The position numbers were made by a program, and so were the translations under genes. DNA of 64,000 bases from positions 1-64,000 of the IMG/VR virus record IMGVR_UViG_3300035703_000044; one strand, 5' to 3'. The notes beneath the pieces are model-generated. The model was not told the DNA's origin. It made no database searches and saw only the letters and a list, made by a program, of their open reading frames with translations. This document shows, piece by piece, positions 47,118-64,000 of this stretch. This DNA is from a virus. Numbering within the stretch: the stretch's first letter is position 1; every line of letters begins with the position of its first letter.

Positions 47118-47126
47118 GTCTTTATT

Positions 47127-47200
47127 GGGGGATTAGCTCAGTTGGTAGTAGCGCATCCTTTGCAAGGATGATGTCATCGGTTCGAGTCCGATATCTTCCA
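47127..47200 (+). tRNA. tRNA-Ala(UGC)
   Basis: Cloverleaf; CATCC-TT-TGC-AA-GGATG; G3:U70 identity pair. Confidence 0.92.
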
Positions 47201-47231
47201 CTTCTAAATACTTGAAAGAGTATTTCTATAG

Positions 47232-48626: not shown

Positions 48627-48652
48627 TAAATATAAGTATATCAAGATAAACC

Positions 48653-49945
48653 ATGAAGAGTTTTTTCCAATTTCTAACTGAGGCAAAAGAATCGCAAGCA
48701 TCCGCTCAAGCGAGGAAACTCAACCTCAAGAGTGATGGACACGGGGGATGGTATGATTCCCGTGGAGAATTTGTTGCGAAAACAGAAGCAGGAAAACTCA
48801 AGTTTTATGATAAGGGAGAAAAGGTAGGTCAGAAGGATCAACCAAAGGAACCCGCAGAAAAGGCAAAACCTGCAAAGAAACCAACTGCAAAACCACAACC
48901 AACTACAACAACTCAAAAGAAATCTCCAGCAAAACCAGAAGGAGAAGGTGGAACTGGAGAGATTAGTGATACTTTAACTGTTGCTTTTGGACGTTTCAAT
49001 CCACCAACAGTAGGACATGAGAAACTTTTAAAGTCTGCTAGTAAGGTTGCTACTGGTGGAGATCTTAAGATTTATCCTTCAAGAACTCAGGATCCTAAGA
49101 AGAATCCATTAGATCCTGATATGAAGATCTCGTTTATGAAAAAGATGTTCCCCGATTTTGAAGATAATATTATTAATGATGATGAGATGAAATCAATCTT
49201 TAATGTATTGATTGCAGCAGCAGAAGCAGGATATGCAAATGTTAATATTGTTGTAGGTTCTGATCGTCAAGCAGAATTTGAGAACCTTGCACAGAAATAC
49301 AATGGTGATCTTTATGACTTTGATCTTATTCGTGTCATCTCTGCAGGTGTGAGAGATGCTGATGCGGAGGGTGTATCGGGAATGTCTGCTTCCAAGATGA
49401 GAAAGGCTGTGATGGATGATGACTTTGAATCATTCCGTAAAGGAACTCCCAAGACTCTTGATGATGGTGATGCACGTTCTTTATTTGATGCAGTCCGTCA
49501 AGGAATGGGCGCAAAGAAATCTAAAGTTCAGAAAGAAGGATATGCTCTCTGGGAGATTGCTCCTAAGTTTGATATGTGGAATCTCCGTGAACATTATGTC
49601 ACCAAGAAAATCTTTAGAATTGGTGATATTGTTGAGAACTTAAACACTGGATTGGTTGGTGAAATCATTCGTAGAGGTGCAAATCATCTTATTTGTGTAA
49701 CTGAAGAGGGTTGGATGTTTAAGTCTTGGATTAAAGATGTGATGGAATATAATGAAGTTAAGATGGAAAGAAAGATGAGAGTTCCTGGAAAGCCAAACAC
49801 TTTGGTTGGAACTGGTGGATACTTTAAATATGTTGCTGATATGACTCCTGGATTTAATAAAGGTGACAAGATGAATCTTCAACCTGGAGCAAAACCTTAT
49901 AGTGGTATTAAGAATTTCATAAATAAGTATAAGGTCAAGAAGTAA
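48653..49945 (+). CDS. cytidylyltransferase-like (HIGH-superfamily) nucleotidyltransferase
   Basis: 'FGRFNPPTVGHEKL', 'VVGSDR', 'MSASKMR'; N-terminus MKSFFQFLTE. Confidence 0.85.
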   Translation: MKSFFQFLTEAKESQASAQARKLNLKSDGHGGWYDSRGEFVAKTEAGKLKFYDKGEKVGQKDQPKEPAEKAKPAKKPTAKPQPTTTTQKKSPAKPEGEGGTGEISDTLTVAFGRFNPPTVGHEKLLKSASKVATGGDLKIYPSRTQDPKKNPLDPDMKISFMKKMFPDFEDNIINDDEMKSIFNVLIAAAEAGYANVNIVVGSDRQAEFENLAQKYNGDLYDFDLIRVISAGVRDADAEGVSGMSASKMRKAVMDDDFESFRKGTPKTLDDGDARSLFDAVRQGMGAKKSKVQKEGYALWEIAPKFDMWNLREHYVTKKIFRIGDIVENLNTGLVGEIIRRGANHLICVTEEGWMFKSWIKDVMEYNEVKMERKMRVPGKPNTLVGTGGYFKYVADMTPGFNKGDKMNLQPGAKPYSGIKNFINKYKVKK

Positions 49946-49958
49946 CACACTTATACTC

Positions 49959-51146
49959 ATGTCAATGAACATCCTTAACGATATTTCTGCAGTCTATCTT
50001 CAACAGGTTGCTGAGAAGAAAGATGATTCATATCTTGAGAAAGATATGAAGAAACGTCACGAGAATAACGAGAAGGCTCGTGAAGAAATGAAGAGGACTA
50101 AGGCAAATAAGGATATGGTGAAGGCTGCCAGAAAGTCTATGGGTGTTGAAGATGATGATGACGATGATGATATCAACGAAGCAGTAAAAGGTGTTGATAC
50201 TGGAATGAGAAAAGCAGCATCTGCCGAAAGAAGATCGGGAGATAAGAGACTTGCTCCTTCTAAAGGAAAGGGGTATGCGGATCAACAAAAACAAAGTATT
50301 GCCTACATGGATAAGGTAACGAAGAAAAATAAAAATGTTGTTGGATTAGTAACTAAGGAAGCACTTGATCCAGTAGGGAAAGAGGATTCTGATATTGATA
50401 ATGATGGTGATACTGATAGTTCAGATAAGTATCTTCATAAGAGAAGAAAGGCAATTGGTAAGGCAATGAAAAAAGAAAAGATGAAAGAGTCTTTTTCAAA
50501 CTGGAGACAAGATCTTGCTGAAGTGATGGGTGATGTTGAATCAAACAAAGAAGTTAAAGAAAAGAAGGTCAATAATAAGATTAAGATTAATCCAGAGATG
50601 AAGGAGGCAGTTGAGGAACTTGGTGGTGAACTGATTGAGATGGTTGAACTTGATGAGAAGGCACTCAGCAAGCAACAACAAAAGTTTATGGGAATGGTTT
50701 ATGCTGTAAAGAAGGGTGAGATGAAAGCACCATCACCTGAAGTTGCAAAGGCAGCTGCAGGTATGAGTAAGAAATCTGCAAGAGACTTTGCAAAGACTAA
50801 ACATAAAGGACTCCCTCAAGTTAAAGAAGATGTTCTTAATGAAAGAGAACATGATGAACCAGGAGAAGGTCCAAGACAAAAATATGGCGATATGCGTGGT
50901 ATAGATAGAGGAACTGGTAATGAAGTAAAATTTGGTGGAAAGTGGCAAAGTAAAGAAAGAAAAGAAGCTGGTGCTGCAGCACTTGCTAAACTGAAGTCTA
51001 AAGAAAATGGAATACGTGAAATGGAAGAACCTACCATGGAACCATCACAAGATAAAACTAGTGATATGCAAAAGAAAAAAATTCAGGTTCAAAAGGTAAG
51101 AGACTTAACAACCAGATTACAGGCTGCAAGAAAAGGAGTTTATTAA
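49959..51146 (+). CDS. highly charged modular protein, putative internal head protein
   Basis: 'LDPVGKEDSDIDNDGD..SDKYL..RRKAIGKA', 'KALSKQQQKFMGMV', 'DFAKTKHKGLP'. Confidence 0.65.
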   Translation: MSMNILNDISAVYLQQVAEKKDDSYLEKDMKKRHENNEKAREEMKRTKANKDMVKAARKSMGVEDDDDDDDINEAVKGVDTGMRKAASAERRSGDKRLAPSKGKGYADQQKQSIAYMDKVTKKNKNVVGLVTKEALDPVGKEDSDIDNDGDTDSSDKYLHKRRKAIGKAMKKEKMKESFSNWRQDLAEVMGDVESNKEVKEKKVNNKIKINPEMKEAVEELGGELIEMVELDEKALSKQQQKFMGMVYAVKKGEMKAPSPEVAKAAAGMSKKSARDFAKTKHKGLPQVKEDVLNEREHDEPGEGPRQKYGDMRGIDRGTGNEVKFGGKWQSKERKEAGAAALAKLKSKENGIREMEEPTMEPSQDKTSDMQKKKIQVQKVRDLTTRLQAARKGVY

Positions 51147-51205
51147 TCTCTTTTTAAGAGTAATATTTTCTAAATAACTTTGAATCCACTTATACGGAGG
51201 TTATT

Positions 51206-51376
51206 ATGGGCGTACTTGTAGAGGTTGTAAAACCAATTATTCTTGCTGCATTAAACTCTTGTCATACTAAGCGTCTTGTGGTTGAACTACTTGAACGTTA
51301 TGTAAAGACTACTGATAATGACATCGATGATGTTATTGCTGGATCAGTAAGAACAGCACTTTTAAAGAACTGCTGA
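51206..51376 (+). CDS. 56 aa hypothetical protein (not in ORF track)
   Basis: GGAGG RBS; MGVLVEVVKPIILAALNSCHTKRLVVELLERYVKTTDNDIDDVIAGSVRTALLKNC. Confidence 0.7.
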   Translation: MGVLVEVVKPIILAALNSCHTKRLVVELLERYVKTTDNDIDDVIAGSVRTALLKNC

Positions 51377-51404
51377 TTAAATAAAATTAAATTAATATGA
51401 GGTG

Positions 51405-51442
51405 GGGAGACGAAAAGTAAAAGTCTCCCTTTTTTATAAATA
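51405..51442 (+). terminator. terminator running into a late promoter
   Basis: GGGAGAC..GTCTCCC, T-run, then TATAAATA. Confidence 0.75.
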
Positions 51443-51473
51443 TTATTAGCAAATATTTTTACGGAAAAGAAAC

Positions 51474-51995
51474 ATGGCACTCTGGGGAAACAATGATAAT
51501 GTTGGTGCTGGTGGTTCAGTATCATTAAATTATTCTACCGGTGTTGTAACGGGAACTGGAACCACTTTTGGGCAGGTGGGAGCTGCAGCGACTGGTGATA
51601 TAATTAGATTTGGAAGTCGCTCTGGTATCTATTTCGGAGATGCTGTAATTGTTGGAATTGCTAGCACGACTCAACTTACTATTGGATCAACTGCTGGTCT
51701 TAGTGGTGCTGCAATTGCTTCTACATCATTTAGAGTAAGTCAACTTCCCAAGTATACTGTACTTGATTCTAAGTATAGTGAAGCTTCCTGGGGAACTGAT
51801 GATTCATATGTATATGGTGTCGCTGAAGGTGGACTGACGGCGGCAACTGGAACTTCATATGCACTTACCCATGGGGGTTGGGTTGGAGTTACCACTTATG
51901 TTGATGCCAATGGATCACTGAGAGTTAAATCTGAGACTCTCGTTGCAATGTCTGGTATCACTACTGGAAACACACCAGTATTTCCCCCTGCATGA
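51474..51995 (+). CDS. virion structural protein
   Basis: 'MALWG', 'HGGWVG', 'RVKSETLVAMS'; late promoter upstream. Confidence 0.7.
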   Translation: MALWGNNDNVGAGGSVSLNYSTGVVTGTGTTFGQVGAAATGDIIRFGSRSGIYFGDAVIVGIASTTQLTIGSTAGLSGAAIASTSFRVSQLPKYTVLDSKYSEASWGTDDSYVYGVAEGGLTAATGTSYALTHGGWVGVTTYVDANGSLRVKSETLVAMSGITTGNTPVFPPA

Positions 51996-52001
51996 TAATA
52001 T

Positions 52002-52394
52002 ATGATCTTCAATGAATTGAATGAGGACAACTTCCTCCTTTTTGCCATTAAGAATTATGAGAATCCTCAGGCCGTAACAAAAGAAGATTTTGATAAAGAT
52101 CTAAATCATTTCAAGTACATCAAAAGACTTTTGAAACGATATAGAAACACTGGGGAACTTAAGGTTCCCCTTTTGATCAATCACTTTATTGTTCTGTATA
52201 ATATCTTTGGTGAAGCAGCAACTCCGATGCTCTTTTTTAAGATAGAACGAGAACTCTGGTCCACGATGAAAACTTTTATATTATTCTTAAACAAGATACC
52301 AGAATATCCAAAATGTTATCTTCACGATATTCCCGTTGACTTAGATTGTTTAAAAGAACTCCAGAAGATTTTTAGGACAAATGAACAAACTTGA
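52002..52394 (+). CDS. conserved T4-like hypothetical protein
   Basis: 'FAIKNYENP..EDF..DL.HFKYIKRLLKRY..LINH..LYNIFG'. Confidence 0.75.
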   Translation: MIFNELNEDNFLLFAIKNYENPQAVTKEDFDKDLNHFKYIKRLLKRYRNTGELKVPLLINHFIVLYNIFGEAATPMLFFKIERELWSTMKTFILFLNKIPEYPKCYLHDIPVDLDCLKELQKIFRTNEQT

Positions 52395-52596
52395 TAGAAT
52401 TATTCGAATGATTCGTGAGCAGATGGTTGCAAATGCTCCTGGTACTTCTGGTGGTTTTACTGGTGCAGCAGATCCTAAAGGTCCAGTTGCTGGTTATGAT
52501 CCAACAATGAAGAGAAGAAAGTATGCTACAGGTGGAATTGGTAGTAGAAAACGCTGGTTAGATTACCTCAAATCCTCCAATGGCAGAAGAAATTAG
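52381..52596 (+). CDS. hypothetical protein
   Basis: 71 aa ORF coupled to both neighbours. Confidence 0.6.
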   Translation: MNKLDRIIRMIREQMVANAPGTSGGFTGAADPKGPVAGYDPTMKRRKYATGGIGSRKRWLDYLKSSNGRRN

Positions 52597-52963
52597 AGTC
52601 GCAGTACTAGAACAAAAACTAGAAGACTTAAAAGACATCATCGTCAAGATAGATGATGCTATCGAAAAGTTAAGTGAAGTAAATAGTAATGTAACTAAGA
52701 TGCTCGCAGTCCATGAGCAAAGGATCTCCAAGCAAGAGGAAACCGACTCTGTACTCTTTGCTAAAATTGACAAACTCCGTGATAAAGTTGACAGGGATTA
52801 TGACGCACTTGTGTCACGAGTACAAACGATAGAGAAAAGGGTCTGGATGGCCATTGGGGCCATTGCATGTATATCCTTTTTAATGAACAATACTCGTGTT
52901 ATAGAAATCTTGACACCAGAACCTCAGGCATCTATAATAGAGCAACGCAACTTTAAGGTTTGA
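52580..52963 (+). CDS. coiled-coil protein with C-terminal transmembrane segment
   Basis: 'LAVHEQRI', hydrophobic 'VWMAIGAIACISFL'. Confidence 0.7.
   Translation: MAEEIRVAVLEQKLEDLKDIIVKIDDAIEKLSEVNSNVTKMLAVHEQRISKQEETDSVLFAKIDKLRDKVDRDYDALVSRVQTIEKRVWMAIGAIACISFLMNNTRVIEILTPEPQASIIEQRNFKV
52910..52938 (+). promoter_or_regulatory. consensus sigma70 promoter upstream of primase
   Basis: TTGACA-N17-TATAAT. Confidence 0.85.
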
Positions 52964-52965
52964 TT

Positions 52966-53934
52966 ATGGATTTTGTTGATGTTAAGTACATCAATTTGAT
53001 TTCTCCACGACTACAAAAATTCAAAAGAGTAAAGAGTAATCTATACAATTTTCGTTGTCCAATCTGTGGTGATTCTCAAAGAAACAAAAACAAAGCGAGA
53101 GGATATCTATATCAGGTAAAGAATAATACAAACTTTAAGTGTCATAATTGTGGATTGAATATATCTTTCAACAACTTCTTAAAACAAGTAGATATCAATA
53201 CACATAAACAATATACGTTTGAAAAATTTAAAGAGGGTAATACTGGTAAAAACTTTGTTATTGATGAACCAGAGTTTAAGTTTGAAACTCCAAAATTCAA
53301 GACAAAGTTAGATCTTCCCAGGGCATCAGAAAATCCTGATGCAAAGACATACCTGGAAAAAAGAAAATTAAACCCACATAAATTTTATTACACTGAAAAA
53401 TTTAAGGAGTGGACTAACTCCCTAAAACCTACATTTGACTCCACTATTAAAGATGAACCAAGGATTATTATTCCCTTGTTTTATCAAGATACACTAGTCG
53501 GATTTCAGGGTAGGGCATTAGGTCCATCAAAAGTTAAATACATTACTGTAATGATTACTGATGACGCACCAAAAATCTATGGTCTCGATGAAATACAAAA
53601 AGACAAAACTGTCTATGTCACAGAAGGTCCCTTCGACTCAACTTTCATTTGCAATGCGATTGCTCTTTGTGGAGCTGACGGTGATCTTGGTAAGTGGGGC
53701 ATTGACAATCCTGTTTGGATCTATGATAACGAACCACGTAATGGAGAAATCGTCAGGCGAATCCAATCTAAAATTGAGAGTGGAGAGTCCGTCGTCATTT
53801 ATCCAAAGTCAGTAACTGAAAAGGACATTAATGACATGGTTTTATCTGGACTTGATGTGCAATCTATGATAGAATCAAATACTTACTCTGGTTTAGAAGC
53901 AAAACTTAAATTTACTACCTGGAAGAAAATATGA
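52966..53934 (+). CDS. gp61: DNA primase gp61
   Basis: 'RCPICGDS', 'CHNC', 'VTEGPFDS', 'DNEPRN', 'KDINDM'. Confidence 0.97.
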   Translation: MDFVDVKYINLISPRLQKFKRVKSNLYNFRCPICGDSQRNKNKARGYLYQVKNNTNFKCHNCGLNISFNNFLKQVDINTHKQYTFEKFKEGNTGKNFVIDEPEFKFETPKFKTKLDLPRASENPDAKTYLEKRKLNPHKFYYTEKFKEWTNSLKPTFDSTIKDEPRIIIPLFYQDTLVGFQGRALGPSKVKYITVMITDDAPKIYGLDEIQKDKTVYVTEGPFDSTFICNAIALCGADGDLGKWGIDNPVWIYDNEPRNGEIVRRIQSKIESGESVVIYPKSVTEKDINDMVLSGLDVQSMIESNTYSGLEAKLKFTTWKKI

Positions 53935-56231
53935 GTAACGGTTTAAAGGTTCAAAAGAGAAATGGGTCAATTGAGAGTATTGACCTTGATAAGATGCATG
54001 TGATGGTTGAAGAGGCGTGTAGGGGTCTTGCAGGAGTCTCTGCGAGTCAAGTTGAGATGAAGTCTGGTATTCAATTCTATGATGGAATTACAACCTCCGA
54101 GATTCAAGAAATTTTGATTCGTAGTGCGAGTGATCTAATTGATCTGGATCACCCTAACTACCAATATGTTGCTGCACGTCTTCTTCTCTTTTCTGTAAGA
54201 AAACAACTTTATGGGAAGATGAAAGAACTTCCCACTCTAGAACAACACATTATTGATTGTGTATCTGCAGAGGTTTATGATAGTGATATCTACAATAAGT
54301 ATTCTCAGGAAGAGATTGAACGTGCAGATTCCTTTATTGACCATGATCGTGACTTCTTGTTCACATATGCAGGCCTTCGTCAGGTAGTTGATAAGTATTT
54401 GGTACAGGATAGGAGTTCTGGTGGAGTGTATGAAACTCCACAATTCATGTACATGATGATTGCTCTGACTATCTTTGCAGAGTATCCAAAAGAAACTAGG
54501 ATGTCATACGTCAAGAGGTATTATGACGCAATCTCAAAACACAAAATCAACATTCCCACACCTATCATGGCGGGGGTTAGAACTCCACTTCGACAATTTG
54601 CAAGCTGTGTTCTTGTTGATGTTGATGACTCCCTCGATAGCATCTTTAGCAGTGATATGGCTATCGGCCGCTATGTTGCACAACGTGCGGGAATCGGTAT
54701 CAACGCAGGTCGAATCCGCGGCATCAACAGCAAAATACGAGGTGGCGAGGTTCAGCACACGGGTGTTGTACCGTTCCTCAAAAAGTTTGAAGCGACTGTC
54801 CGATGTTGTACTCAAAATGGCATACGCGGTGGATCCGCCACCGTACACTTCCCAATCTGGCACCAAGAAATCGAAGACATCTTAGTTCTCAAGAACAACA
54901 AAGGAACCGAAGATAACCGAGTTCGTAAACTTGATTATTCTATTCAGATTTCTAAGTTGTTCTATGAGAGATTCATTCGCAATGAAGAAGTATCTCTCTT
55001 CTCACCGCATGATGTTCCTGGACTCTATGAGGCATTTGGAACAGATAGGTTTGATGAGTTGTATTTGAGGTATGAGAATGATCCTTCTACCAAGAAAAAG
55101 ACCATTGGTGGACAAGAACTTATTCTTAATCTCTTGAAAGAACGTGCTGAGACTGGTCGTATTTACATTATGAATATTGATCATTGTAACTCACACTCAT
55201 CATTCAAAGATAAGATTGAAATGTCCAATCTTTGTCAGGAAATCACCCTTCCAACTTATCCAATTCAACACATTGATGATGAGAGTGGAGAGATTGCTCT
55301 TTGTATTCTTTCCGCAATCAATGTTGGTAAAGTAAAGTCTGATGAAGAACTGGAAGAACTCTGTGAACTTTCTGTTCGTGGATTGGATGAACTGATTGAT
55401 TATCAGAAGTATCCAGTACGTGCTGCAGAACTCGCCACGAAGGCGCGTAGATCCCTTGGAATCGGTTACATTGGTCTTGCACACTATCTTGCTAAACTTG
55501 GGTATTCATATGAATCTCAAGAGGCCTGGGATGCAGTTCATGGACTCTCAGAATCTTTTCAGTATTACCTGTTGAAAGCTTCTAACAAACTTGCAAAAGA
55601 AAAAGGTCATTGTGAAAACTTTGGTCGTACTAAGTATGCTGATGGAATTCTTCCAATCGATACTTATAAAAAAGATGTAGACGAAATTTCATCGATTCCA
55701 TACCAACATGATTGGGAAACTCTTAGGACATCTATCCTGGAACATGGTCTCAGGCACTCAACACTGTCCGCACAAATGCCATCGGAGAGCAGTTCCGTTG
55801 TGTCAAACGCCACAAATGGAATCGAACCTCCCCGTGGATTCTTGTCCATTAAGAAATCCAAGAAGGGACCTCTTAAACAGATTGTTCCCCAATATGCAAC
55901 GTTGAAGAACCACTACACGTTGTTGTGGGACATGAAGAGTAATGAAGGTTACATCAAGATTGTTGCAATGATGCAAAAGTTCTTTGATCAGGCTATTTCT
56001 GGTAACTGGAGTTACAATCCAGAAAACTATCCAGACAATGAAGTTCCAGTGTCAGTTATGGCAAATGACTTCTTGACTACATACAAGTACGGATGGAAAA
56101 CTTCCTATTATCAGAATACTTACGATATCAAGACTGATGAAGTGGTGGAAGAAAAGAAATCCGAATTGGAAAATCTAATTAATGAGTTAAGTTCAGTAGA
56201 GGAGGGAGAGTGTGAATCCTGTGCAGTTTAA
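53931..56231 (+). CDS. nrdA: class Ia ribonucleotide reductase alpha subunit
   Basis: ATP cone, 'QFASC', 'SNLCQEI', C-terminal 'CESC'. Confidence 0.98.
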   Translation: MSNGLKVQKRNGSIESIDLDKMHVMVEEACRGLAGVSASQVEMKSGIQFYDGITTSEIQEILIRSASDLIDLDHPNYQYVAARLLLFSVRKQLYGKMKELPTLEQHIIDCVSAEVYDSDIYNKYSQEEIERADSFIDHDRDFLFTYAGLRQVVDKYLVQDRSSGGVYETPQFMYMMIALTIFAEYPKETRMSYVKRYYDAISKHKINIPTPIMAGVRTPLRQFASCVLVDVDDSLDSIFSSDMAIGRYVAQRAGIGINAGRIRGINSKIRGGEVQHTGVVPFLKKFEATVRCCTQNGIRGGSATVHFPIWHQEIEDILVLKNNKGTEDNRVRKLDYSIQISKLFYERFIRNEEVSLFSPHDVPGLYEAFGTDRFDELYLRYENDPSTKKKTIGGQELILNLLKERAETGRIYIMNIDHCNSHSSFKDKIEMSNLCQEITLPTYPIQHIDDESGEIALCILSAINVGKVKSDEELEELCELSVRGLDELIDYQKYPVRAAELATKARRSLGIGYIGLAHYLAKLGYSYESQEAWDAVHGLSESFQYYLLKASNKLAKEKGHCENFGRTKYADGILPIDTYKKDVDEISSIPYQHDWETLRTSILEHGLRHSTLSAQMPSESSSVVSNATNGIEPPRGFLSIKKSKKGPLKQIVPQYATLKNHYTLLWDMKSNEGYIKIVAMMQKFFDQAISGNWSYNPENYPDNEVPVSVMANDFLTTYKYGWKTSYYQNTYDIKTDEVVEEKKSELENLINELSSVEEGECESCAV

Positions 56232-57399
56232 GATTTCTTCTACGGAAGAAACCACACAAATTAAAGGAATGACGGTTTTTAACACTGAAAAAGTTGATAC
56301 TAAGAAACAACCAATGTTTTTTGGTAAACCCCTTGGAGTCCAGAGATATGATTCATACAAATATCCTGTATTCGATAAACTGACCACTCAACAATTAGGA
56401 TACTTCTGGAGACCCGAAGAGGTGTCTCTCCAGAAGGATCGTGGAGATTATCAAACACTACGTCCAGAACAGAAACATATCTACACTTCTAATCTGAAGT
56501 ATCAGATTATGCTTGATTCTGTTCAGGGACGTGGACCTGGAATGGCATTTATTCCTTATTGTTCTTTGCCAGAACTTGAGGCATGTATGGAAGTATGGGG
56601 ATTTATGGAGATGATCCATAGTCGTTCATACACTTATATCATCAAGAATGTATACTCGGATCCTTCTGAGGTATTTGATACTATTATTACAGATAATCGC
56701 ATTCTTGAACGTGCCAAGAGTGTAACTGAATCGTATGATGACTTTATTCAATCAGCACAATCTTATGGTACATCCAATGCATGGATGCACAATCTTGAAG
56801 GAGTTTCATACGCAAGAGAAACAATTAACGATGTTAAAAGAAAACTCTATAGAGCAGTCGCAAACGTTAACATTCTTGAAGGTATTCGCTTCTACGTTAG
56901 TTTTGCATGTTCTTTCGCATTCGGTGAACTTAAGCTCATGGAAGGATCCGCTAAGATCATCTCTCTTATCGCAAGAGACGAAAATCAACACTTAGCAATC
57001 ACTCAAAATATTCTGAATAAGTGGAAAGAAGGTGATGATCCTGAGATGCGTCAGATCGCAAAAGAAGAAGAAGAGTGGGTTTATGCAATGTTTGATCGTG
57101 CAGTAAATGAAGAAAAGAAATGGGCAGATTATCTGTTCAAAGATGGAAGCATGATTGGACTTAATGATAAACTTCTTCAACAGTACGTTGAATGGATTGC
57201 AAACAGAAGACTTAAAGCAATTGGGATGAAACCCCAGTACGATATTTCAGCAAACAATAATCCACTTCCTTGGACTCAGCACTGGATTTCCTCTAAAGGT
57301 CTCCAGGTGGCTCCCCAAGAAACGGAAGTTGAAAGTTATGTGGTAGGTGGAATTAAACAAGATGTGAAAACAGACACATTTAGTGGTTTCAAACTGTAA
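56212..57399 (+). CDS. nrdB: ribonucleotide reductase beta subunit
   Basis: 'FWRPEE', 'EMIHSRSY', 'LEGIRFYVSF', 'RDENQH'. Confidence 0.98.
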   Translation: MNPVQFKISSTEETTQIKGMTVFNTEKVDTKKQPMFFGKPLGVQRYDSYKYPVFDKLTTQQLGYFWRPEEVSLQKDRGDYQTLRPEQKHIYTSNLKYQIMLDSVQGRGPGMAFIPYCSLPELEACMEVWGFMEMIHSRSYTYIIKNVYSDPSEVFDTIITDNRILERAKSVTESYDDFIQSAQSYGTSNAWMHNLEGVSYARETINDVKRKLYRAVANVNILEGIRFYVSFACSFAFGELKLMEGSAKIISLIARDENQHLAITQNILNKWKEGDDPEMRQIAKEEEEWVYAMFDRAVNEEKKWADYLFKDGSMIGLNDKLLQQYVEWIANRRLKAIGMKPQYDISANNNPLPWTQHWISSKGLQVAPQETEVESYVVGGIKQDVKTDTFSGFKL

Positions 57400-57424
57400 T
57401 AATATAATAAAATTTTATAGATAG

Positions 57425-57446
57425 GGGAGAGTAATCTCCCTTTTTT
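57425..57446 (+). terminator. intrinsic terminator after nrdB
   Basis: GGGAGA-GTAA-TCTCCC followed by T6. Confidence 0.85.
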
Positions 57447-57447
57447 A

Positions 57448-57603
57448 ATGCCTAAAAATCAACTCACTAAAGACGAACTGAAGGTTCGTGTATTAAAACT
57501 AAAAGATAGATTGCACAAGGACCAACCAAGTTGGGACTCTAAAGGACTTGCTCATAAATATCTGAATGAAGTTCTTGACATTATTGATGAGTATAGGTAC
57601 TAG
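57448..57603 (+). CDS. 51 aa hypothetical protein (not in ORF track)
   Basis: MPKNQLTKDELKVRVLKLKDRLHKDQPSWDSKGLAHKYLNEVLDIIDEYRY. Confidence 0.55.
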   Translation: MPKNQLTKDELKVRVLKLKDRLHKDQPSWDSKGLAHKYLNEVLDIIDEYRY

Positions 57604-58045
57604 TTGCAGTTATAATAATGGGTGGAAATATAAGAAACCTGAAGGACAATGTTTCGAGTCTGAAGACATAGGGGATAATTTTGGGTTTGTTTATCTCATT
57701 ACAAACAAGATAAACTCCAAACAATACATAGGACGGAAATATTTCTGGCAGTTTAGGACCCCCAAAGGGAAAAAACGTAAAGTAAAATCAGAGTCTAATT
57801 GGAAGGATTACTATGGGTCTTGCCCAGAACTTAAAGAAGATATTGAAAAATACGGCAGAGAAAATTTTGTTAGAGTTATTCTCTCATTACATAAAACAAA
57901 GGGCAAAACAAACTTTGAAGAGACAAGACAACTCTTCTGCCACAACGTCCTCACGGAATCACTTGACAACGGGGAACCAGCCTTCTACAATAGCAACATC
58001 CTCAACAGGTACTTCCGAAAAGATTACTATGGAAACACAGATTGA
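57587..58045 (+). CDS. GIY-YIG-family nuclease (catalytic domain only)
   Basis: 'GFVYLITN....QYIGRK', 'YYGS', 'FYNSNI'; start uncertain. Confidence 0.75.
   Translation: MSIGTSCSYNNGWKYKKPEGQCFESEDIGDNFGFVYLITNKINSKQYIGRKYFWQFRTPKGKKRKVKSESNWKDYYGSCPELKEDIEKYGRENFVRVILSLHKTKGKTNFEETRQLFCHNVLTESLDNGEPAFYNSNILNRYFRKDYYGNTD
57963..57991 (+). promoter_or_regulatory. intragenic sigma70-like promoter
   Basis: TTGACA-N17-TACAAT upstream of ORF 58029. Confidence 0.6.
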
Positions 58046-58247
58046 ACCAGTGCCTTATGTGAGGGAGTGGTGTATTAATCGAATCCATTACCTTGCAGAT
58101 CATGGTGGATTGGAAGATCAGTTCAATGCCGTCGCTCTTGCTGAAGAGTTTGATGAATGGATCAACATTCCAGAAGGAGTTCAAGAACTTGATTATCTCT
58201 GTCTTGAAGAAGAAGGTTGGGGGGATCAAGAGGTTGATATTCGGTAA
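58029..58247 (+). CDS. acidic hypothetical protein
   Basis: 72 aa, 'A.ALAEEFDEWI'. Confidence 0.65.
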   Translation: METQIEPVPYVREWCINRIHYLADHGGLEDQFNAVALAEEFDEWINIPEGVQELDYLCLEEEGWGDQEVDIR

Positions 58248-58339
58248 ACCAAACACTTGACTTTTACTAAATATTAACTTATTATGTAAAATCCCACTCC
58301 AAAAGGGTGGGATTTTTATTATTAGACTTTGATTTGATT

Positions 58340-58406
58340 TAGAGCCCAGGAAGGTGCCCCCCGAGAGGGGCGGTGTACCCCCCTTCTATTGGGATGTAGA
58401 GTTCTA
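58340..58406 (+). ncRNA. GC-rich multi-stem leader RNA candidate upstream of the rlpA-like gene
   Basis: Nested pairings plus CCCC-GAGA-GGGG hairpin in an AT-rich context. Confidence 0.5.
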
Positions 58407-58415
58407 TTAAATTTA

Positions 58416-58778
58416 ATGCTTTTTAAAACACTTTCAATTCTTGTCTTTGGTCTTGTCGGACTGGCACCCGTAACAGCAAAGGCAGCGAGCGGATGTTCCC
58501 TCGCATCACATTATGGAGTCGGTGATGGATATCACGGGCAGACAACTGCCAATGGTGAAAGATACAATGCTTATGGTAAATCAGTAGCACATAAAACACT
58601 TCCTTTTGGAACTAGATTGCGTGTAACCAATCAATCAAACGGTAAGTCTGTGATTGTGCGTGTAAATGATCGCGGTCCTTATATCGCGGGTAGAGACCTT
58701 GACTTGTCTTACGGTGCATTCTCTACTATTGCTTCACCCGGTCAAGGTGTTGCTAGGATTTGTTACTCGCGGGTATGA
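58416..58778 (+). CDS. rlpA: RlpA-like (DPBB) lytic transglycosylase with signal peptide
   Basis: 'ASHYG', 'TANGE', 'AHKTLPFGT', 'VRVNDRGPY', 'LDLS'; N-terminus ends 'AKA'. Confidence 0.9.
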   Translation: MLFKTLSILVFGLVGLAPVTAKAASGCSLASHYGVGDGYHGQTTANGERYNAYGKSVAHKTLPFGTRLRVTNQSNGKSVIVRVNDRGPYIAGRDLDLSYGAFSTIASPGQGVARICYSRV

Positions 58779-58802
58779 CGATCTGAAAAACTGAATAAAT
58801 AG

Positions 58803-58831
58803 AGAGGAGTGGTTGCTACTCCTCTTTTTTT
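58803..58831 (+). terminator. intrinsic terminator
   Basis: AGAGGAG..CTCCTCT followed by a T-run. Confidence 0.75.
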
Positions 58832-59242
58832 ATGTTTAATTTTAACTTCGGTAAGAAGAAACCAGATAAGAAGAAGATATTCATCATAAGTCTCGTACTC
58901 AGTGGTATCGTAGCAACCCTCTCACAATGCACAGGAGTGTCCCAGAAGACCCTGTGGGACCTTCTAGACGAGGTACAGAGGACTCTGTTCCCTCAGACCA
59001 TAATCAATGATGTTCTGATCCAAGATCCAGACATCATAAAGAGAAGAGTTGAAAGGGATGTAGACAGAGCCATAAGAGAATATGAGGACTTGACAAGAGA
59101 CTCAGAACCACCTAGAGTACCTTTGCCACGGTTGATAGAGAAAGCTCCAGATGAAGCTTTATGTTATTCTGAAGAGTGTAAGAAACTTGGAGGAGAAATG
59201 AGACTCTGTGCCCCATGGCTTGACACCTGTAAAGAGGAGTGA
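58832..59242 (+). CDS. membrane-anchored hypothetical protein
   Basis: Basic N-terminus, hydrophobic 'IFIISLVLSGIVATLSQC', C-terminal Cys cluster. Confidence 0.7.
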   Translation: MFNFNFGKKKPDKKKIFIISLVLSGIVATLSQCTGVSQKTLWDLLDEVQRTLFPQTIINDVLIQDPDIIKRRVERDVDRAIREYEDLTRDSEPPRVPLPRLIEKAPDEALCYSEECKKLGGEMRLCAPWLDTCKEE

Positions 59243-59248
59243 TATACT
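59220..59248 (+). promoter_or_regulatory. sigma70-like promoter for the tRNA array
   Basis: TTGACA-N17-TATACT. Confidence 0.8.
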
Positions 59249-59265
59249 AAACAAGTAAACAACAA

Positions 59266-59337
59266 GGGCTCATAGTTAAGCGGATATAACTACCGCCTTC
59301 TAAGCGGTCGTCCCTGGTTCGATTCCAGGTGAGCCTG
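59266..59337 (+). tRNA. tRNA-Arg(UCU)
   Basis: ACCGC-CT-TCT-AA-GCGGT; TTCGA T-loop. Confidence 0.92.
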
Positions 59338-59370
59338 TTGACAATTATACTCAATTACTCTATAATTGTC
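59338..59370 (+). promoter_or_regulatory. consensus sigma70 promoter overlapped by a 10-bp inverted repeat
   Basis: TTGACA-N17-TATAAT; GACAATTATA / TATAATTGTC. Confidence 0.8.
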
Positions 59371-59375
59371 TTATT

Positions 59376-59446
59376 GCGAGTGTGGTGTAGTGGTAACATG
59401 CGAGCCTTCCAAGCTCTTGTCACGGGTTCGAACCCCGTCACTCGCT
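59376..59446 (+). tRNA. tRNA-Gly(UCC)
   Basis: GAGC-CT-TCC-AA-GCTC; acceptor GCGAGTG/CACTCGC; U73. Confidence 0.92.
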
Positions 59447-59448
59447 CT

Positions 59449-59520
59449 CCTCTGGTAGTCTATTGGTAAGGACACCCCGACAAGGGAGTTGGAAATTGGG
59501 TTCGATTCCCAGACAGAGGT
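59449..59520 (+). tRNA. atypical tRNA-like gene (aberrant anticodon arm, GAC in loop)
   Basis: Acceptor CCTCTG/CAGAGG; D-arm and TTGGG-TTCGATT-CCCAG T-arm present; anticodon arm only CCC-GACAA-GGG. Confidence 0.55.
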
Positions 59521-59524
59521 ACAT

Positions 59525-59600
59525 TCCCCTATAGCTCAATTGGCAGAGCACGGAGCTGTTAACTCTGGGGTTGTTAGTTCGAGTCTAACTGGGGGAGCCA
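59525..59600 (+). tRNA. tRNA-Asn(GUU), encoded CCA
   Basis: GGAG-CT-GTT-AA-CTCT; ends GCCA. Confidence 0.92.
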
Positions 59601-59601
59601 C

Positions 59602-59674
<73 letters not shown>

Positions 59675-59695
59675 CATAAATATTTCAAAAAGATA

Positions 59696-60133
59696 ATGGA
59701 CGAGTTATACCAGTCATTACACAAAGCACAAACAAGTCTTTTTTGTTTAATGCAAAAGACTTGGGTATATCATTGGAATGTGGTTGGTTCGGATTTCTTT
59801 GAACTTCATGAAGCATTTGGTGAACAATATACTACAATGCAAGGTGAACTAGATAGATTGACTGAACATATGAGATATCTTCGCATGAAAGCTATCTCAC
59901 CAATCAGTAGAGTCATTGAAACATGCGAGATTCCAGAAGCATCATCAAACCCAACTGATAAATCTATGGTTTCTCAGTTGCTTGCAGACAATAAAAAGAT
60001 GATTGAACTTCTCACTTCTGTTGTAGAAGAATCTGAAAAAACAAAACAATATACTACATCAAATATTGCTCAGGATTTAATTGAAACACATGGCAAATTT
60101 GTTTGGATGTTACGATCGTATTTGAAAGAATGA
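59696..60133 (+). CDS. dps: Dps family ferritin-like protein
   Basis: 'YHWNVVG.DFFELHEAF.EQY', 'DRLTEH', 'GKFVWML'. Confidence 0.92.
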   Translation: MDELYQSLHKAQTSLFCLMQKTWVYHWNVVGSDFFELHEAFGEQYTTMQGELDRLTEHMRYLRMKAISPISRVIETCEIPEASSNPTDKSMVSQLLADNKKMIELLTSVVEESEKTKQYTTSNIAQDLIETHGKFVWMLRSYLKE

Positions 60134-60303
60134 AAAAGAAAACCTTTAACAAACTTATTCAAAAACCTTTGAGGTTTCATCATCAAGATATTCATGAGGA
60201 ACTTGATATTATTAAGTTAGAACTATTAGAGATTAGGAGATTATTGCAAGATGTTAATCGTGAGATGCCGAGATTGCAACAAGGAGATAACCAGCACGAA
60301 TAA
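60130..60303 (+). CDS. hypothetical protein
   Basis: ATG coupled to the dps stop; overlaps the next ORF. Confidence 0.45.
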   Translation: MKKKTFNKLIQKPLRFHHQDIHEELDIIKLELLEIRRLLQDVNREMPRLQQGDNQHE

Positions 60304-60496
60304 AACTCAGGTGTGTGGTTGTCCAAATACTATGACTGTCAAAGGTGACAGTGTTTCAGCTGTTGACTTAAGTAGAGTAGTTATGGTAAACTCTACACAG
60401 AAAGAACAAAGAAATGTTCTGACTTCTCAAGATCTTGCTTTTCAGGAAGCAAGGAGACAACGCAAAGTTCGTAAACTGGACTTTGAGATTCGATAG
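60251..60496 (+). CDS. small Cys-rich hypothetical protein
   Basis: 'CRDC...CGCPN', 'SAVDLS'. Confidence 0.7.
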   Translation: MLIVRCRDCNKEITSTNKTQVCGCPNTMTVKGDSVSAVDLSRVVMVNSTQKEQRNVLTSQDLAFQEARRQRKVRKLDFEIR

Positions 60497-60582
60497 GAAG
60501 GTCAAGCCGATAGGTGACGGCAGCTGTCTTGAAAACAGTCGAGGTGTTAAAGCCCTTAGGCGTTCGATTCGCCTACCTTCCG
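60496..60582 (+). tRNA. tRNA-Ser(UGA)
   Basis: GCTGT-CT-TGA-AA-ACAGT; long variable arm; G73. Confidence 0.9.
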
Positions 60583-60705
60583 TTACATAAGATACAGATT
60601 TAAGATTTTGTTTCGTTTTCTGTATCGCAGTGTTACAGAATCCTGACATATAGTTGACTTTGAAAAACCAGTGATTAGTATATATTAGTAATACGAATCA
60701 CAGAC

Positions 60706-60855
60706 ATGGACCAACATACCTATAATAATTGGGTCCGTATAAAGGAAACATTTGAAGCATCTGGTAATACAGATAATATGTTTTACAAGAGATCAGTGGA
60801 GATAGTTAAGACTAGAAGAGATCCCTTGGCAAAGTTTCTTGGAGATGAAAAGTAA
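60706..60855 (+). CDS. 49 aa hypothetical protein (not in ORF track)
   Basis: MDQHTYNNWVRIKETFEASGNTDNMFYKRSVEIVKTRRDPLAKFLGDEK. Confidence 0.6.
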   Translation: MDQHTYNNWVRIKETFEASGNTDNMFYKRSVEIVKTRRDPLAKFLGDEK

Positions 60856-60873
60856 GATTATACATAGAGTACG

Positions 60874-60987
60874 ATGAGACATCTTGTTGTGGAATTACTT
60901 AATAATAATCTGTTCTTATTCATCTTGTGTTACCTCTTGACAATGGTTCCAATCTTGGGTATAATGATCATACACAAAAACAAATAA
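60874..60987 (+). CDS. 37 aa single-transmembrane peptide (not in ORF track)
   Basis: MRHLVVELLNNNLFLFILCYLLTMVPILGIMIIHKNK. Confidence 0.45.
   Translation: MRHLVVELLNNNLFLFILCYLLTMVPILGIMIIHKNK
60937..60965 (+). promoter_or_regulatory. consensus sigma70 promoter for tRNA-Pro
   Basis: TTGACA-N17-TATAAT. Confidence 0.85.
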
Positions 60988-61061
60988 CGGGGTGTAGCTC
61001 AGTTTGGTAGAGCGCTGCTTTTGGGAAGCAGAAGTCGTAGGTTCGAATCCTGTCACCCCGA
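60988..61061 (+). tRNA. tRNA-Pro(UGG)
   Basis: CTGCT-TT-TGG-GA-AGCAG; C1:G72, A73. Confidence 0.93.
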
Positions 61062-61077
61062 TCATAAAACTCACTTT

Positions 61078-61305
61078 ATGAAAATGCAAGAAATTTCTGA
61101 ACTTCAATCATTCACTGTAGAAGAGTTTCAAACTGACTTTGATAATCTTATGGATAGAGTAGAACAAGGAGAATCGTTTATCATAACAAGTGAACATGGT
61201 AGTGCAGTTATGGTGCCATATAAAGAAGTGGTAGAAGTATTTGAAGAATGTGGTGTGAGTGAGGATATAATACGCATTCACACCAACCACGAAGAAGGTT
61301 CATAA
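61078..61305 (+). CDS. Phd/YefM antitoxin-like protein
   Basis: 'FTVEEFQTDFDNLMDRVEQGESFIITSEHGSAVMVP' matches the Phd N-terminal pattern. Confidence 0.65.
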   Translation: MKMQEISELQSFTVEEFQTDFDNLMDRVEQGESFIITSEHGSAVMVPYKEVVEVFEECGVSEDIIRIHTNHEEGS

Positions 61306-61312
61306 TTTTCTC

Positions 61313-61384
61313 GGGACTGTCGCCTATTGGCTAAGGCCCACTGCTTATAACGGTGTGAACTGGGTTCAATTCCCAGCAGTCCTA
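61313..61384 (+). tRNA. tRNA-Ile(UAU)
   Basis: CACTG-CT-TAT-AA-CGGTG; A73. Confidence 0.85.
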
Positions 61385-61387
61385 CTT

Positions 61388-61460
61388 GCTCCTTTAGCTC
61401 TCTGGTGAAAGCACTCTGCTCATAACAGAAGAAAGGTCAGTTCGATCCTGACAAGGAGCA
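61388..61460 (+). tRNA. tRNA with CAU anticodon (elongator Met, or Ile2)
   Basis: TCTG-CT-CAT-AA-CAGA; paired G1:C72, so not an initiator. Confidence 0.88.
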
Positions 61461-61463
61461 CTA

Positions 61464-61515
61464 GGACAGAAACTCTTCTGTCCATCTTGACTTCTCCAAG
61501 TCAAACCCTTATAAT
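61464..61515 (+). promoter_or_regulatory. GGACAG-N8-CTGTCC palindrome plus sigma70-like promoter
   Basis: Palindrome 61464-61483; TTGACT(61487)-N17-TATAAT(61510). Confidence 0.7.
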
Positions 61516-61537
61516 ACTAAGGTCAACATTCAAAACA

Positions 61538-61753
61538 ATGACTCTCAATTCCAAATTCAAGAAAGACATCCAAACCCTTCGTGGTGCAGCAAACGGTGAA
61601 TTTTATCTTGATGTGAAGAATCCGAAACTTTACAAAAAGGTTCGTCGGTACTATGAAAGTGAAGGTGTAGTATTCTCTGGTGATCCTCTGGATGATTATG
61701 AAATGCTTATGGAATATGTGTATAGTGACCTTGAATCTGTGGAAGTAGCATGA
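61538..61753 (+). CDS. conserved cyanophage hypothetical protein
   Basis: 'LDVKNPKLYKKVRRYYE.EGV.FSGDP.DDY'. Confidence 0.75.
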   Translation: MTLNSKFKKDIQTLRGAANGEFYLDVKNPKLYKKVRRYYESEGVVFSGDPLDDYEMLMEYVYSDLESVEVA

Positions 61754-61998
61754 CAACACGACTTCCTAAAGTTCTTTTGGAACGAGAAGGATATCGTTTC
61801 GTTGAAGTGGGTATTCTTGAAATCAACGGTAAACCTGATTACCGTATGCAAAAACAAAACGAATACACCAAACGTTGGAATGACATTTATCTTTTTGATA
61901 ATGTTCTACAATGTTCTACTGCAATGGAAGATATTGAGTATGCGAAATGGTTAGATCCAGATCGTGTTCCTTGTTATGTGAGAGATGATGATGAGTAA
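61750..61998 (+). CDS. conserved hypothetical protein
   Basis: 'YRFVEVG....NGKPDYRMQK', 'AMEDIEYAKWL'. Confidence 0.75.
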   Translation: MTTRLPKVLLEREGYRFVEVGILEINGKPDYRMQKQNEYTKRWNDIYLFDNVLQCSTAMEDIEYAKWLDPDRVPCYVRDDDE

Positions 61999-62046
61999 AT
62001 AGTCACGGATGGACTATAACAGCACTGGTCGGGAGCAAAACCCCTT

Positions 62047-62280
62047 ATGTCTAAATCTGATATTCTCAGATACATTGGTAATGTTCTTCTCTTATCAGGA
62101 TACTTTTTCCTTTTATGGGGAGATCCAAAATCTGGGTTATTAGTTAAGTGTATAGGAAATGCATTTGTAATTCCCTTTGCACTTAAGTATAAGTTCTGGG
62201 ACATTTTAATTCTATGTGGTTTTTATGCCGCGATTGAGATACCAAAACTTATACAACTTTTCTTAGTTTCTCAAAACTGA
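62047..62280 (+). CDS. small multi-pass membrane protein
   Basis: 77 aa with about three hydrophobic segments. Confidence 0.65.
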   Translation: MSKSDILRYIGNVLLLSGYFFLLWGDPKSGLLVKCIGNAFVIPFALKYKFWDILILCGFYAAIEIPKLIQLFLVSQN

Positions 62281-62400
62281 GTGGTGGAGTCAAATGACCC
62301 CTATGAGTTTCTTGCTTCTCTCAAGAGCAAGTGGTGCGGATGGAGGTTACTCCCGCTGAGTTTCTTGTTTTCTCGTACTCAAAACAAGTGGCGAGCCTGA
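62258..62400 (+). ncRNA. wcaG-like structured RNA, tandem UGGYG units
   Basis: Three hairpin+TGGYG units upstream of an NAD-dependent epimerase, the known context of the cyanophage wcaG RNA motif. Confidence 0.75.
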
Positions 62401-62408
62401 GTTACATA

Positions 62409-62444
62409 AGAGGAGTTGCATAAACTCCTCTTTTTTTGTATAAT
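62409..62444 (+). terminator. terminator overlapping a sigma70-like promoter
   Basis: AGAGGAGTT..AACTCCTCT plus T-run; TTGCAT(62416)-N17-TATAAT(62439). Confidence 0.8.
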
Positions 62445-62471
62445 AGATAGTACAGAGATTATTCATTTTCT

Positions 62472-63518
62472 ATGAGTCAATATGTAAAGAAGGCACTTGT
62501 GCTTGGTGCTGGTGGTTTTATTGGAAGTCATATGGTGAAGAGACTTCGTTCGGAAGGATATTGGGTTCGTGGTGTGGACCTAAAATATCCAGAATTTTCT
62601 GGGACTGAAGCCAATGAATTTGTTATTGGTGATCTGAGAGATGTTTCTTTTGTAGAACGAGTCATTCAATATAAAGGTGATCGTGGAAACTTTTATAAGT
62701 TTGTTCCATCCAGATATCTTCAGGCATTTGATGAAATTTATCAGTTTGCTGCTGATATGGGTGGTGCTGGATTTGTTTTTAGTGGAGAAAATGATGCAGA
62801 TATTATGCATAACTCCGCTACAATTAATCTAAATGTTCTTGAGTCTGTAAGAAAGTTTAATGACTTTCTTGGCAAAAATGTAACCAAAGTTTTCTATTCT
62901 GGATCTGCTTGCATGTATCCAGAACATAATCAGTTAGATCCAGACAACCCCGATTGTCGTGAAGAGTCTGCATATCCCGCTAACCCAGATTCAGAATATG
63001 GATGGGAAAAACTCTTTTCTGAACGTCTGTACTTTGCTTATCATCGCAACTATGGTATTCCTGTACGTGTTGCTCGATACCACAATATTTTTGGACCAGA
63101 AGGGACTTGGACTGGTGGTAGGGAAAAGGCCCCTGCAGCTATTTGTCGCAAAGTAGCAGAACTTCCTGATCTTGGTGGAACGATTGAAGTGTGGGGTGAT
63201 GGAGAACAGACACGTTCATTCCTTTATGTTGATGAGTGTATTGAAGCAACTCGTCGCATGATGGATTCCAATTTCATTGGACCAGTGAATATTGGTTCCG
63301 AAGAGATGGTGACGATTAATCAACTCGTAGATACTGTTTCTAAGGTTGCTGGCATCCCTGTAAAGAGACAACATAAACTTGATGCTCCTCTTGGTGTTCG
63401 TGGTCGCAACTCTAATAATGATCTGATTCGTGAAAAATTAGGTTGGGATTATGAACAGACTCTTGAAGAAGGCATTCGCAAAACATATTTCTGGATCAAA
63501 GAACAACTGCAAAAATGA
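62472..63518 (+). CDS. NAD-dependent epimerase, GDP-mannose 3,5-epimerase-like
   Basis: 'GAGGFIG', 'AADMGGAGF', 'SACMYP', 'YGWEK', 'GGREKAPAAICRK'. Confidence 0.9.
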   Translation: MSQYVKKALVLGAGGFIGSHMVKRLRSEGYWVRGVDLKYPEFSGTEANEFVIGDLRDVSFVERVIQYKGDRGNFYKFVPSRYLQAFDEIYQFAADMGGAGFVFSGENDADIMHNSATINLNVLESVRKFNDFLGKNVTKVFYSGSACMYPEHNQLDPDNPDCREESAYPANPDSEYGWEKLFSERLYFAYHRNYGIPVRVARYHNIFGPEGTWTGGREKAPAAICRKVAELPDLGGTIEVWGDGEQTRSFLYVDECIEATRRMMDSNFIGPVNIGSEEMVTINQLVDTVSKVAGIPVKRQHKLDAPLGVRGRNSNNDLIREKLGWDYEQTLEEGIRKTYFWIKEQLQK

Positions 63519-64000
63519 CTATCAGTTTTAACCTTTTGGGACATCATGGTAGACTCGGTAACCAGATGTTCCAGTATGCAACTTTAAAATCTATTGCTAC
63601 AAAACACGGATACGAGTTTACGATCCCTCCAAGTGATTTCAATGATCCTTGGCACGATCATCAACTCTTTGAGGGATTTGAACTTTATTCTCTACCAAAA
63701 GAGAATATTGGGTATAATCAAACAGATAAGAGAGTTGAGGAAGGTCACTTTCATTTCAATCAAGAACTTTATGAAAGTTGTCCTGATGATATAGATCTTT
63801 TTGGATACTTTCAAACTGAAAAGTATTTCTCAGACATCAAAGAAGATGTAAAAAAAGATTTTACATTTAAAGAAAATATTCTTTCAGTCGCAAAAGATTA
63901 CAGAAGTCAAATTGAGAGTGATGAAGTTATCTCATTACATGTTCGTAGAGGAGATTATGTAAATCAACCTTGGCATGGATGTTGTCCCCTTGAATATTAT
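63515..64000 (+). CDS. GT11 alpha-1,2-fucosyltransferase-like protein (partial, runs off the window; not in ORF track)
   Basis: ATG63515 reads MTISFNLLGHHGRLGNQMFQYA...GYFQTEKYF...SLHVRRGDY. Confidence 0.9.
   Translation, partial: MTISFNLLGHHGRLGNQMFQYATLKSIATKHGYEFTIPPSDFNDPWHDHQLFEGFELYSLPKENIGYNQTDKRVEEGHFHFNQELYESCPDDIDLFGYFQTEKYFSDIKEDVKKDFTFKENILSVAKDYRSQIESDEVISLHVRRGDYVNQPWHGCCPLEYY

Follow-up and report, generated by a model that had tools for sequence, protein, structure and literature searches.

A widespread family of structured 5′ leader RNAs in T4-like cyanophages, located upstream of exported murein hydrolase genes

A stretch of 64,000 nucleotides from an IMG/VR virus record (IMGVR_UViG_3300035703_000044, positions 1–64,000; hereafter the window) contains a GC-rich segment ending just before a gene for an exported lipoprotein. 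The initial annotation, made from the sequence alone, regarded this segment as a cis-regulatory RNA that times the expression of a cell-wall enzyme. This raises the question of whether the fold is maintained as RNA in related phages, with which genes it is associated, and what kind of partner could read it.

Genomic setting, upstream elements and fold

The window originates from a T4-like cyanomyovirus, whose record comprises 93.8 kb and is 48% complete. The 5′ neighbours of the leader are NrdA, NrdB, a SegE-type GIY-YIG endonuclease and an ORF of phrog_23981; on the 3′ side it is followed, in order, by the gene of a 120-aa DPBB_1 lipoprotein, a terminator-like hairpin, an unknown ORF and a tRNA cluster (Table 1). 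The SegE-type ORF (57566-58045) overlaps the 144-aa phrog_23981 ORF (57813-58247) in another frame, both lying directly 5′ of the leader. This endonuclease may be a recent insertion, since it is absent at the corresponding site in both S-PM2 and DSL-LC03. Several further features were noted downstream. At 59449-59520, packed between tRNA-Gly and tRNA-Asn, ARAGORN reports a gene of tRNA shape whose anticodon has two bases (tRNA-???); a weak Phd/YefM antitoxin-like ORF is situated among the tRNA genes at 61021-61305 (24.4 bits, under the Pfam cut-off); and a wcaG RNA (RF01761, 78 bits) at 62303-62402, 4 kb downstream of the leader, precedes a sugar-modifying operon.

Table 1. Sequence and structure features of the leader locus (window coordinates)
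Feature	Position	Strand	Details
Sigma70-type promoter TTGACT-17 nt-TATTAT with late-type box CTAAATA (58267-58273) in the spacer	58257-58285	+	10/12 consensus matches
Terminator-like stem-loop with U tract, directly 3′ of the promoter	58288-58320	+	12 pairs, 5 G-C
Conserved box TATTAGACTTTGA	58320-58332	+	Position profile over 184 upstream regions; usually TTATGAGAnTTTGA in homologues
Conserved 5′ single strand UAGAG (family consensus RGAG)	58340-58344	+	
P1 5′ strand CCCA	58345-58348	+	Pairs with 58390-58393 UGGG
P2 5′ strand GGAAGGUG	58349-58356	+	Pairs with 58380-58387; U55/C81 mismatch, G49-U87 wobble
P3 hairpin CCCCCC-GAGA-GGGGcGG	58357-58373	+	Loop 58363-58366; C58371 bulged
3′ bulge UGUACC, P3/P2 junction	58374-58379	+	Sequence varies by structural type
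P2 3′ strand CCCCUUCU	58380-58387	+	
AU bulge, P2/P1 junction	58388-58389	+	AU kept in types A-C; AAG, AAA or UAAC in the distant clade
P1 3′ strand UGGG	58390-58393	+	
Conserved 3′ single strand AUGUAGAGUUC (family consensus AUG-NN-GAR-UUC)	58394-58404	+	
A/U-rich linker	58405-58415	+	Fixed length, variable sequence
Exported lipoprotein gene, 120 aa	58416-58778	+	DPBB_1 (RlpA-like) domain, lipobox ASGC
Intrinsic-terminator-like hairpin	58801-58827	+	End of one-gene unit

A late-type CTAAATA had been pointed out at 58267. It is present, not as a free-standing element but within the spacer of a sigma70-type promoter, and the same layout (TTGACA-CTAAATA-TATAAT) is found upstream of most homologous leaders. 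A layout that combines early and late promoter elements has been reported for psbA of cyanophages (PMC5931967). The hairpin with a T tract, previously placed at 58288-58317, was recovered at 58288-58316; most homologues have a stem-loop with a U tract at the equivalent place, its stem sequence varying among them. Most loci share one order of elements: sigma70-type promoter with late box, stem-loop with U tract, conserved box, a spacer of about 8 nt and the motif. A tRNA gene takes the place of the promoter in an S-CREM1-like subset, and in a distant clade the late box alone precedes the leader. The possibility that the TTATGAGA box is part of another conserved hairpin was considered as well and rejected, the folds being inconsistent.

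The motif itself (58340-58404) is a bulged hairpin consisting of P1 (4 bp), P2 (8 bp) and P3 (6 bp) with a GAGA loop, enclosed between two conserved single strands. These helices correspond to the nested fold drawn in the initial annotation, including its inner GNRA hairpin. The outermost helix of that drawing, TAGAGC/GTTCTA, can form in the window and is not conserved: most homologues carry GTTCAA, and the rare changes are uncompensated. Both this helix (as RNA, UAGAGC/GUUCUA) and the UAGAG/AUGUA pairing proposed by RNAalifold were discarded because of uncompensated changes in the homologous leaders L155, L162, L279 and L293-L305 and in the whole YCGAR subfamily. The folding energy of the single sequence corresponds to z −1.55 over 96 nt and z −3.09 over 166 nt; single-sequence folding is weak evidence for the element, and the comparative evidence is strong.

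No Rfam 15 family covers the hairpin, as judged by Infernal cmscan over the whole window at the gathering score and over 58150-58500 at E ≤ 10, and five diverse homologous loci searched at E ≤ 1 gave nothing overlapping it. No known riboswitch model matches in these searches, as in the initial annotation, where the leader could not be assigned to the c-di-AMP, glutamine or another familiar riboswitch consensus. Likenesses to SRP RNA, tRNA and CsrA sites received no model support (Rfam, 58150-58500, E ≤ 10).

Covariation, distribution and downstream genes

Covariation was assessed in two alignments. When a hand-drawn structure is laid over 108 distinct leaders aligned with MAFFT only, 93.8% of the cells at paired positions are paired vs 79.5% in shuffles, and compensatory changes occur in 11 of the 17 pairs. 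None of 500 shuffles reached the observed values for paired cells, compensatory pairs or covariation score, and two of 500 did so for further pair types; the signal collapses when the partners are slid by 1–3 columns. Covariation among homologues, on which the initial claim hinged, extends to 15 of the 17 pairs when 98 leaders, distant variants among them, are aligned with a covariance model (CM). In the latter alignment all four P1 pairs are compensatory, with 99.7% of cells paired, and two P1 pairs invariant in the first set change from C-G to U-A in L306-L308 once distant leaders are added. P2 contains 4–5 pairs with compensatory changes in both alignments, and P3 covaries at every pair. 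The G-U pair at the base of P2 is nearly invariant and many further G-U pairs occur, all compatible with the + strand only, so that selection acts on the helix at the RNA level.

The hairpin exists in three main types, A, B and C, differing in the sequences of P2, P3 and the 3′ bulge, and in a further type D, with a non-GNRA loop, in a distant DPBB clade. The 3′ bulge reads, by types A–D, UGUAC, AAGUGCG, AACUUCUC or GUUGCGAC, and the P3 loop is GAGA or GAAA in most copies, not all. Two natural variants are strongly reduced: L308 retains P1 plus a 5-bp hairpin only, and L183 (751-806) carries a deletion that removes P2 and P3, so that only a 3-bp P1 closed by a CUAUA loop remains between the flanks; the Phage_lysozyme2 gene that follows is intact. 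What is constant over all variants is the base of the hairpin, i.e., RGAG, P1 and AUG-NN-GAR-UUC. Exchange of DNA by recombination among close phage relatives could make this conservation look greater than it is.

BLASTN detects the leader in three isolates, S-PM2, S-CREM1 and DSL-LC03; in DSL-LC03 the leader alone matches, ahead of a different gene. A search pattern built on the conserved flanks matched at least 120 IMG/VR contigs, and a second pattern with a variant 3′ flank matched at least 120 further ones. Each of the five complete or nearly complete genomes contains exactly one copy, and the genome position of the leader varies. Applied to 185,579 prokaryote species (one genome each), the strict pattern found four contigs only, all from freshwater MAGs in non-cyanobacterial bins. 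These contigs (L370-L373), binned as Crocinitomicaceae, Acidimicrobiaceae and Pseudomonadota MAGs, are probably mis-binned cyanophage DNA, and a host origin of the leader was rejected on this account. Two loci preceding more distant DPBB genes, L309 and L314, possess sequences resembling the 3′ flank (GGUGUCGAAUUC; GCGGAUGUUGUUG) 5′ of the start codon, with no CM hit; by their sequence they may be remote relatives of the motif.

The genes following the leader belong to two unrelated families, both with N-terminal export signals. The first comprises DPBB_1 lipoproteins of about 120 aa (about 155 aa in the distant clade), the second Phage_lysozyme2 (PF18013) proteins of 205–226 aa; in each genome the leader precedes one hydrolase family or the other. 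The association was also followed in the reverse direction: the covariance model found the leader before 78 of 80 and 80 of 80 closest relatives of the two protein families. Both missing cases are cut at a contig end, which leaves the leader in front of every intact close homologue (158/158). DSL-LC03 (OR003938.1) encodes at 73626-73910 a second DPBB homologue, without a signal peptide and without the leader, which in this genome precedes the Phage_lysozyme2 gene. The proportions of hairpin types A, B and C are similar in front of the two gene families, indicating that leader and gene recombine freely.

Such shuffling, together with the varying genome position and the presence of a promoter and stem-loop upstream, as in PeSLs (PMC4122927), might be taken to indicate a recombination cassette acting at the DNA level, a PeSL-like junction behind whose single regulatory region hydrolase genes are swapped and in which the RNA fold is incidental. 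We consider this extremely improbable, as the compensatory changes and strand-specific G-U pairs point to selection on an RNA helix and the flanks remain conserved over deep divergence.

The leader belongs to a widespread RNA family that has no name so far, made up of structured 5′ leaders of T4-like cyanophages and encoded on the + strand: a real and strongly supported new RNA family of cis-acting mRNA leaders with an unusually tight functional association. As for the initial proposal of a cis-regulatory RNA that times a cell-wall enzyme, its first half stands and timing is a candidate function only, since covariation, strand-specific G-U pairs, fixed spacing and occurrence before every intact close homologue lend strong sequence-based support to a cis-acting structured leader tied to such an enzyme. 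The riboswitch flavour of the proposal fares worse, as discussed below.

Flanking strands, start region and candidate modes of action

Of the conserved strands bordering the hairpin, the 5′ strand occurs as UAGAG, AAGAG or GAGAG only, apart from three GUG exceptions. Both flanks are conserved down to about 45% protein identity, although their invariance in the first leader set was partly imposed by the search pattern and is relieved only by the protein-based and second-pattern sets. They show no compensated pairing to each other. Pairing between the 5′ flank and the linker was rejected too, as no such pair is among those with high mutual information.

Spacing to the gene is fixed. The start ATG at 58416 is separated from the conserved 3′ strand by 11 nt, and the start codon falls exactly 12 nt past GAGUU in 123 of 124 loci; 68 of 82 loci of a sibling subfamily share this offset. 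Relative to the start codon, the covarying helices stop at −23. According to partition-function folding of 191 leaders, positions −14 to +20 are about 55% unpaired with no consistent partner, so the start site is not sequestered, and no terminator is located between the motif and the ATG. The reported lack of an SD upstream of the ATG was confirmed. It is not special to the hydrolase gene, because SD sequences are rare throughout the phage of the window. Mimicry of, or complementarity to, 16S rRNA was rejected for E. coli 16S, to which local alignments in both senses scored no better than shuffles.

We tentatively propose that the leader is a platform recognised by a protein, a ribonuclease or the 30S subunit, and that it thereby affects how the hydrolase mRNA is translated or processed; judged from sequence comparison, we give this reading somewhat less than an even chance. 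The element would act in cis and post-transcriptionally, on the initiation of translation or on the processing or stability of the mRNA, and the variable P1–P3 hairpin would be a scaffold joining RGAG and AUG-NN-GAR-UUC at the 5′ edge of the ribosome-binding region. The conserved strands would be read by a trans-acting macromolecule (RNA-binding protein, ribonuclease or 30S subunit), not by a small ligand; a ligand pocket is disfavoured because the distal hairpin is variable, the bulges are not conserved and natural truncations occur. The predicted promoter of the hydrolase gene combines early and late elements, and hence the leader would set the amount of hydrolase, perhaps also its timing.

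Cyanophages exploit host RNase E, and a processing or stability element may be considered as an alternative to the recognition platform. Here host RNase E or RNase III would cut at or near GAR/UUC, the former beside the hairpin and the latter within the roughly 18-bp stem, thereby setting mRNA half-life during infection; the products would be an mRNA with a short leader or with a protected 5′ end. A rod-like bulged helix of about 18 bp, variable in sequence and adjoined by conserved single strands, fits such a role, as do the leaders that follow a tRNA gene instead of a promoter, whose mRNA must be released by processing. However, RNase III substrates do not normally depend on invariant flanks, and the fixed distance to the start codon favours the ribosome more; we regard this alternative as unlikely.

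Another alternative is a metabolite- or ion-sensing riboswitch, which would make hydrolase synthesis responsive to a signal from the host, for example a wall precursor or a second messenger. Besides the free start region and the lack of both a terminator after the motif and a matching riboswitch model, the bulge and loop sequences differ among types A, B, C and D, P2 and P3 are absent or minimal in natural variants (L183, L308), and neither a multi-helix junction nor a supported pseudoknot is present. For these reasons, the riboswitch flavour of the initial proposal is not supported, and we judge this reading to be very unlikely, even though the leader resembles ydaO in being an orphan structured leader before cell-wall genes and its GNRA loop and bulges are conserved within each type. 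A further point in its favour is a possible competing hairpin in the 3′ half of the element, more stable than shuffles (mean z about −2). This hairpin may allow a conformational switch, and it leaves the start site untouched. A broader proposal makes the leader the sensor of a new timing circuit of lysis or wall remodelling, in cyanomyoviruses, gating translation of the sole Sec-exported murein hydrolase of the phage either as a new class of ligand-responsive RNA, through the competing hairpin, or as the operator of a dedicated RNA-binding protein from phage or host; this seems to us quite unlikely.

The AUG at the helix base (58394-58396) deserves separate consideration, as no CM-confirmed variant lacks it, whereas the two bases that follow vary. 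One explanation would be that this upstream AUG is translated: the hairpin would bring the weak SD-like RGAG beside it, and termination or a short uORF would be followed by reinitiation at the SD-less main AUG. Hairpin-bridged split ribosome-binding sites are documented for T4 genes 25 and 38, and the upstream AUG, usually out of frame with the gene, is in frame in L297/L298 and L308. We nevertheless see a very slim chance for this explanation: the spacing between helix and AUG is zero, RGAG makes a poor SD, in a phage that seldom uses SDs, the variation after the AUG is not codon-like, and the UAG stop is not conserved. In the window the AUG forms AUG-UAG, but such a start-stop arrangement was rejected as a universal feature, since UAG is replaced by CCG, UCG or UUG in the large sibling subfamily. 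In the triplet following the AUG in that subfamily (CCG or UCG), positions 1–2 vary and position 3 is fixed, a non-coding pattern. No clear coding constraint was found in the AUG-UAG frame, and the region 46000-64000 contains no suppressor tRNA.

Significance and comparison with known systems

To our knowledge, the control of lysis and wall remodelling in T4-like cyanophages is poorly understood, and no obvious holin/endolysin pair is present in their genomes. The element marks the single exported murein hydrolase slot of each genome and is kept whichever of the two unrelated enzymes occupies this slot, an argument for the leader rather than the enzyme as the regulatory feature under conservation. 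It is a good candidate for a control element by which cyanophages dose or time a wall-cutting enzyme, and the 65-nt hairpin with its two short strands offers a concrete, mutable handle in tractable phage–host pairs such as S-PM2/WH7803 and S-CREM1/CB0101. The motif is not reported in the S-CREM1 paper, where the S-CREM1 genome was screened against Rfam (PMC9964418). Fremin et al. 2023 (PMC10690425) predicted 10,006 structured RNAs from IMG/VR as candidates without a name, of which 879 lie no more than 25 nt from a gene that encodes a known domain, and the present motif may be among these candidates. It would enlarge the small set of cyanophage-specific RNA motifs by one family.

Temporal translational control of the T4 lysozyme gene e / gene 49 was reportedly described by McPheeters et al. 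in 1986. In T4 gene e the ribosome-binding site lies within a hairpin, and late promoters fire from inside this hairpin. The cyanophage leader is similar in that RNA structure is placed in front of a wall-lytic enzyme gene transcribed early and late. In contrast to gene e, its ribosome-binding site is outside the covarying hairpin, whose helices end at −23, and CTAAATA is located upstream of the entire leader in all layouts seen; as the late box is never inside the hairpin, the gene e mechanism is inapplicable. With the split ribosome-binding sites of T4 genes 25 and 38 the leader shares a hairpin that has a purine run resembling an SD on one side and an AUG on the other. In all variants the hairpin is bordered by RGAG and AUG, with 0 nt spacing, and only 3 nt are complementary to the anti-SD. 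Unlike in the T4 genes, the AUG at the helix base is not the start codon of the gene in most variants, no spacing is present and the SD-like element is weak.

The c-di-AMP (ydaO) riboswitch shows a comparable gene association with RlpA-like, NlpC/P60 and other wall enzymes, but its model does not match the leader, which is much smaller and lacks the pseudo-twofold multi-helix fold. PeSL cassettes of T4-like phages (PMC2839356, PMC4122927) resemble the locus in having an early promoter followed by a stem-loop and in forming a shuffled one-gene module; the arrangement expected of PeSLs at module borders, an early sigma70-type promoter with a stem-loop immediately behind it, is present at 58257-58320 at the level of the pattern only and does not extend to the hairpin motif. 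PeSLs, unlike the leader, have no covarying hairpin of roughly 65 nt with conserved flanks at the start codon. Comparable motifs are also wcaG, manA and PhotoRC-II, orphan cis-regulatory motifs of cyanophages (Weinberg et al. 2010, PMC2864571): they, too, are structured, covarying 5′ leaders found mostly in cyanophages and in marine and freshwater metagenomes, linked to a gene class and with no known ligand or partner. The present family differs from them in sequence and fold, being a single rod-like hairpin with conserved flanks that stands before exported murein hydrolases.
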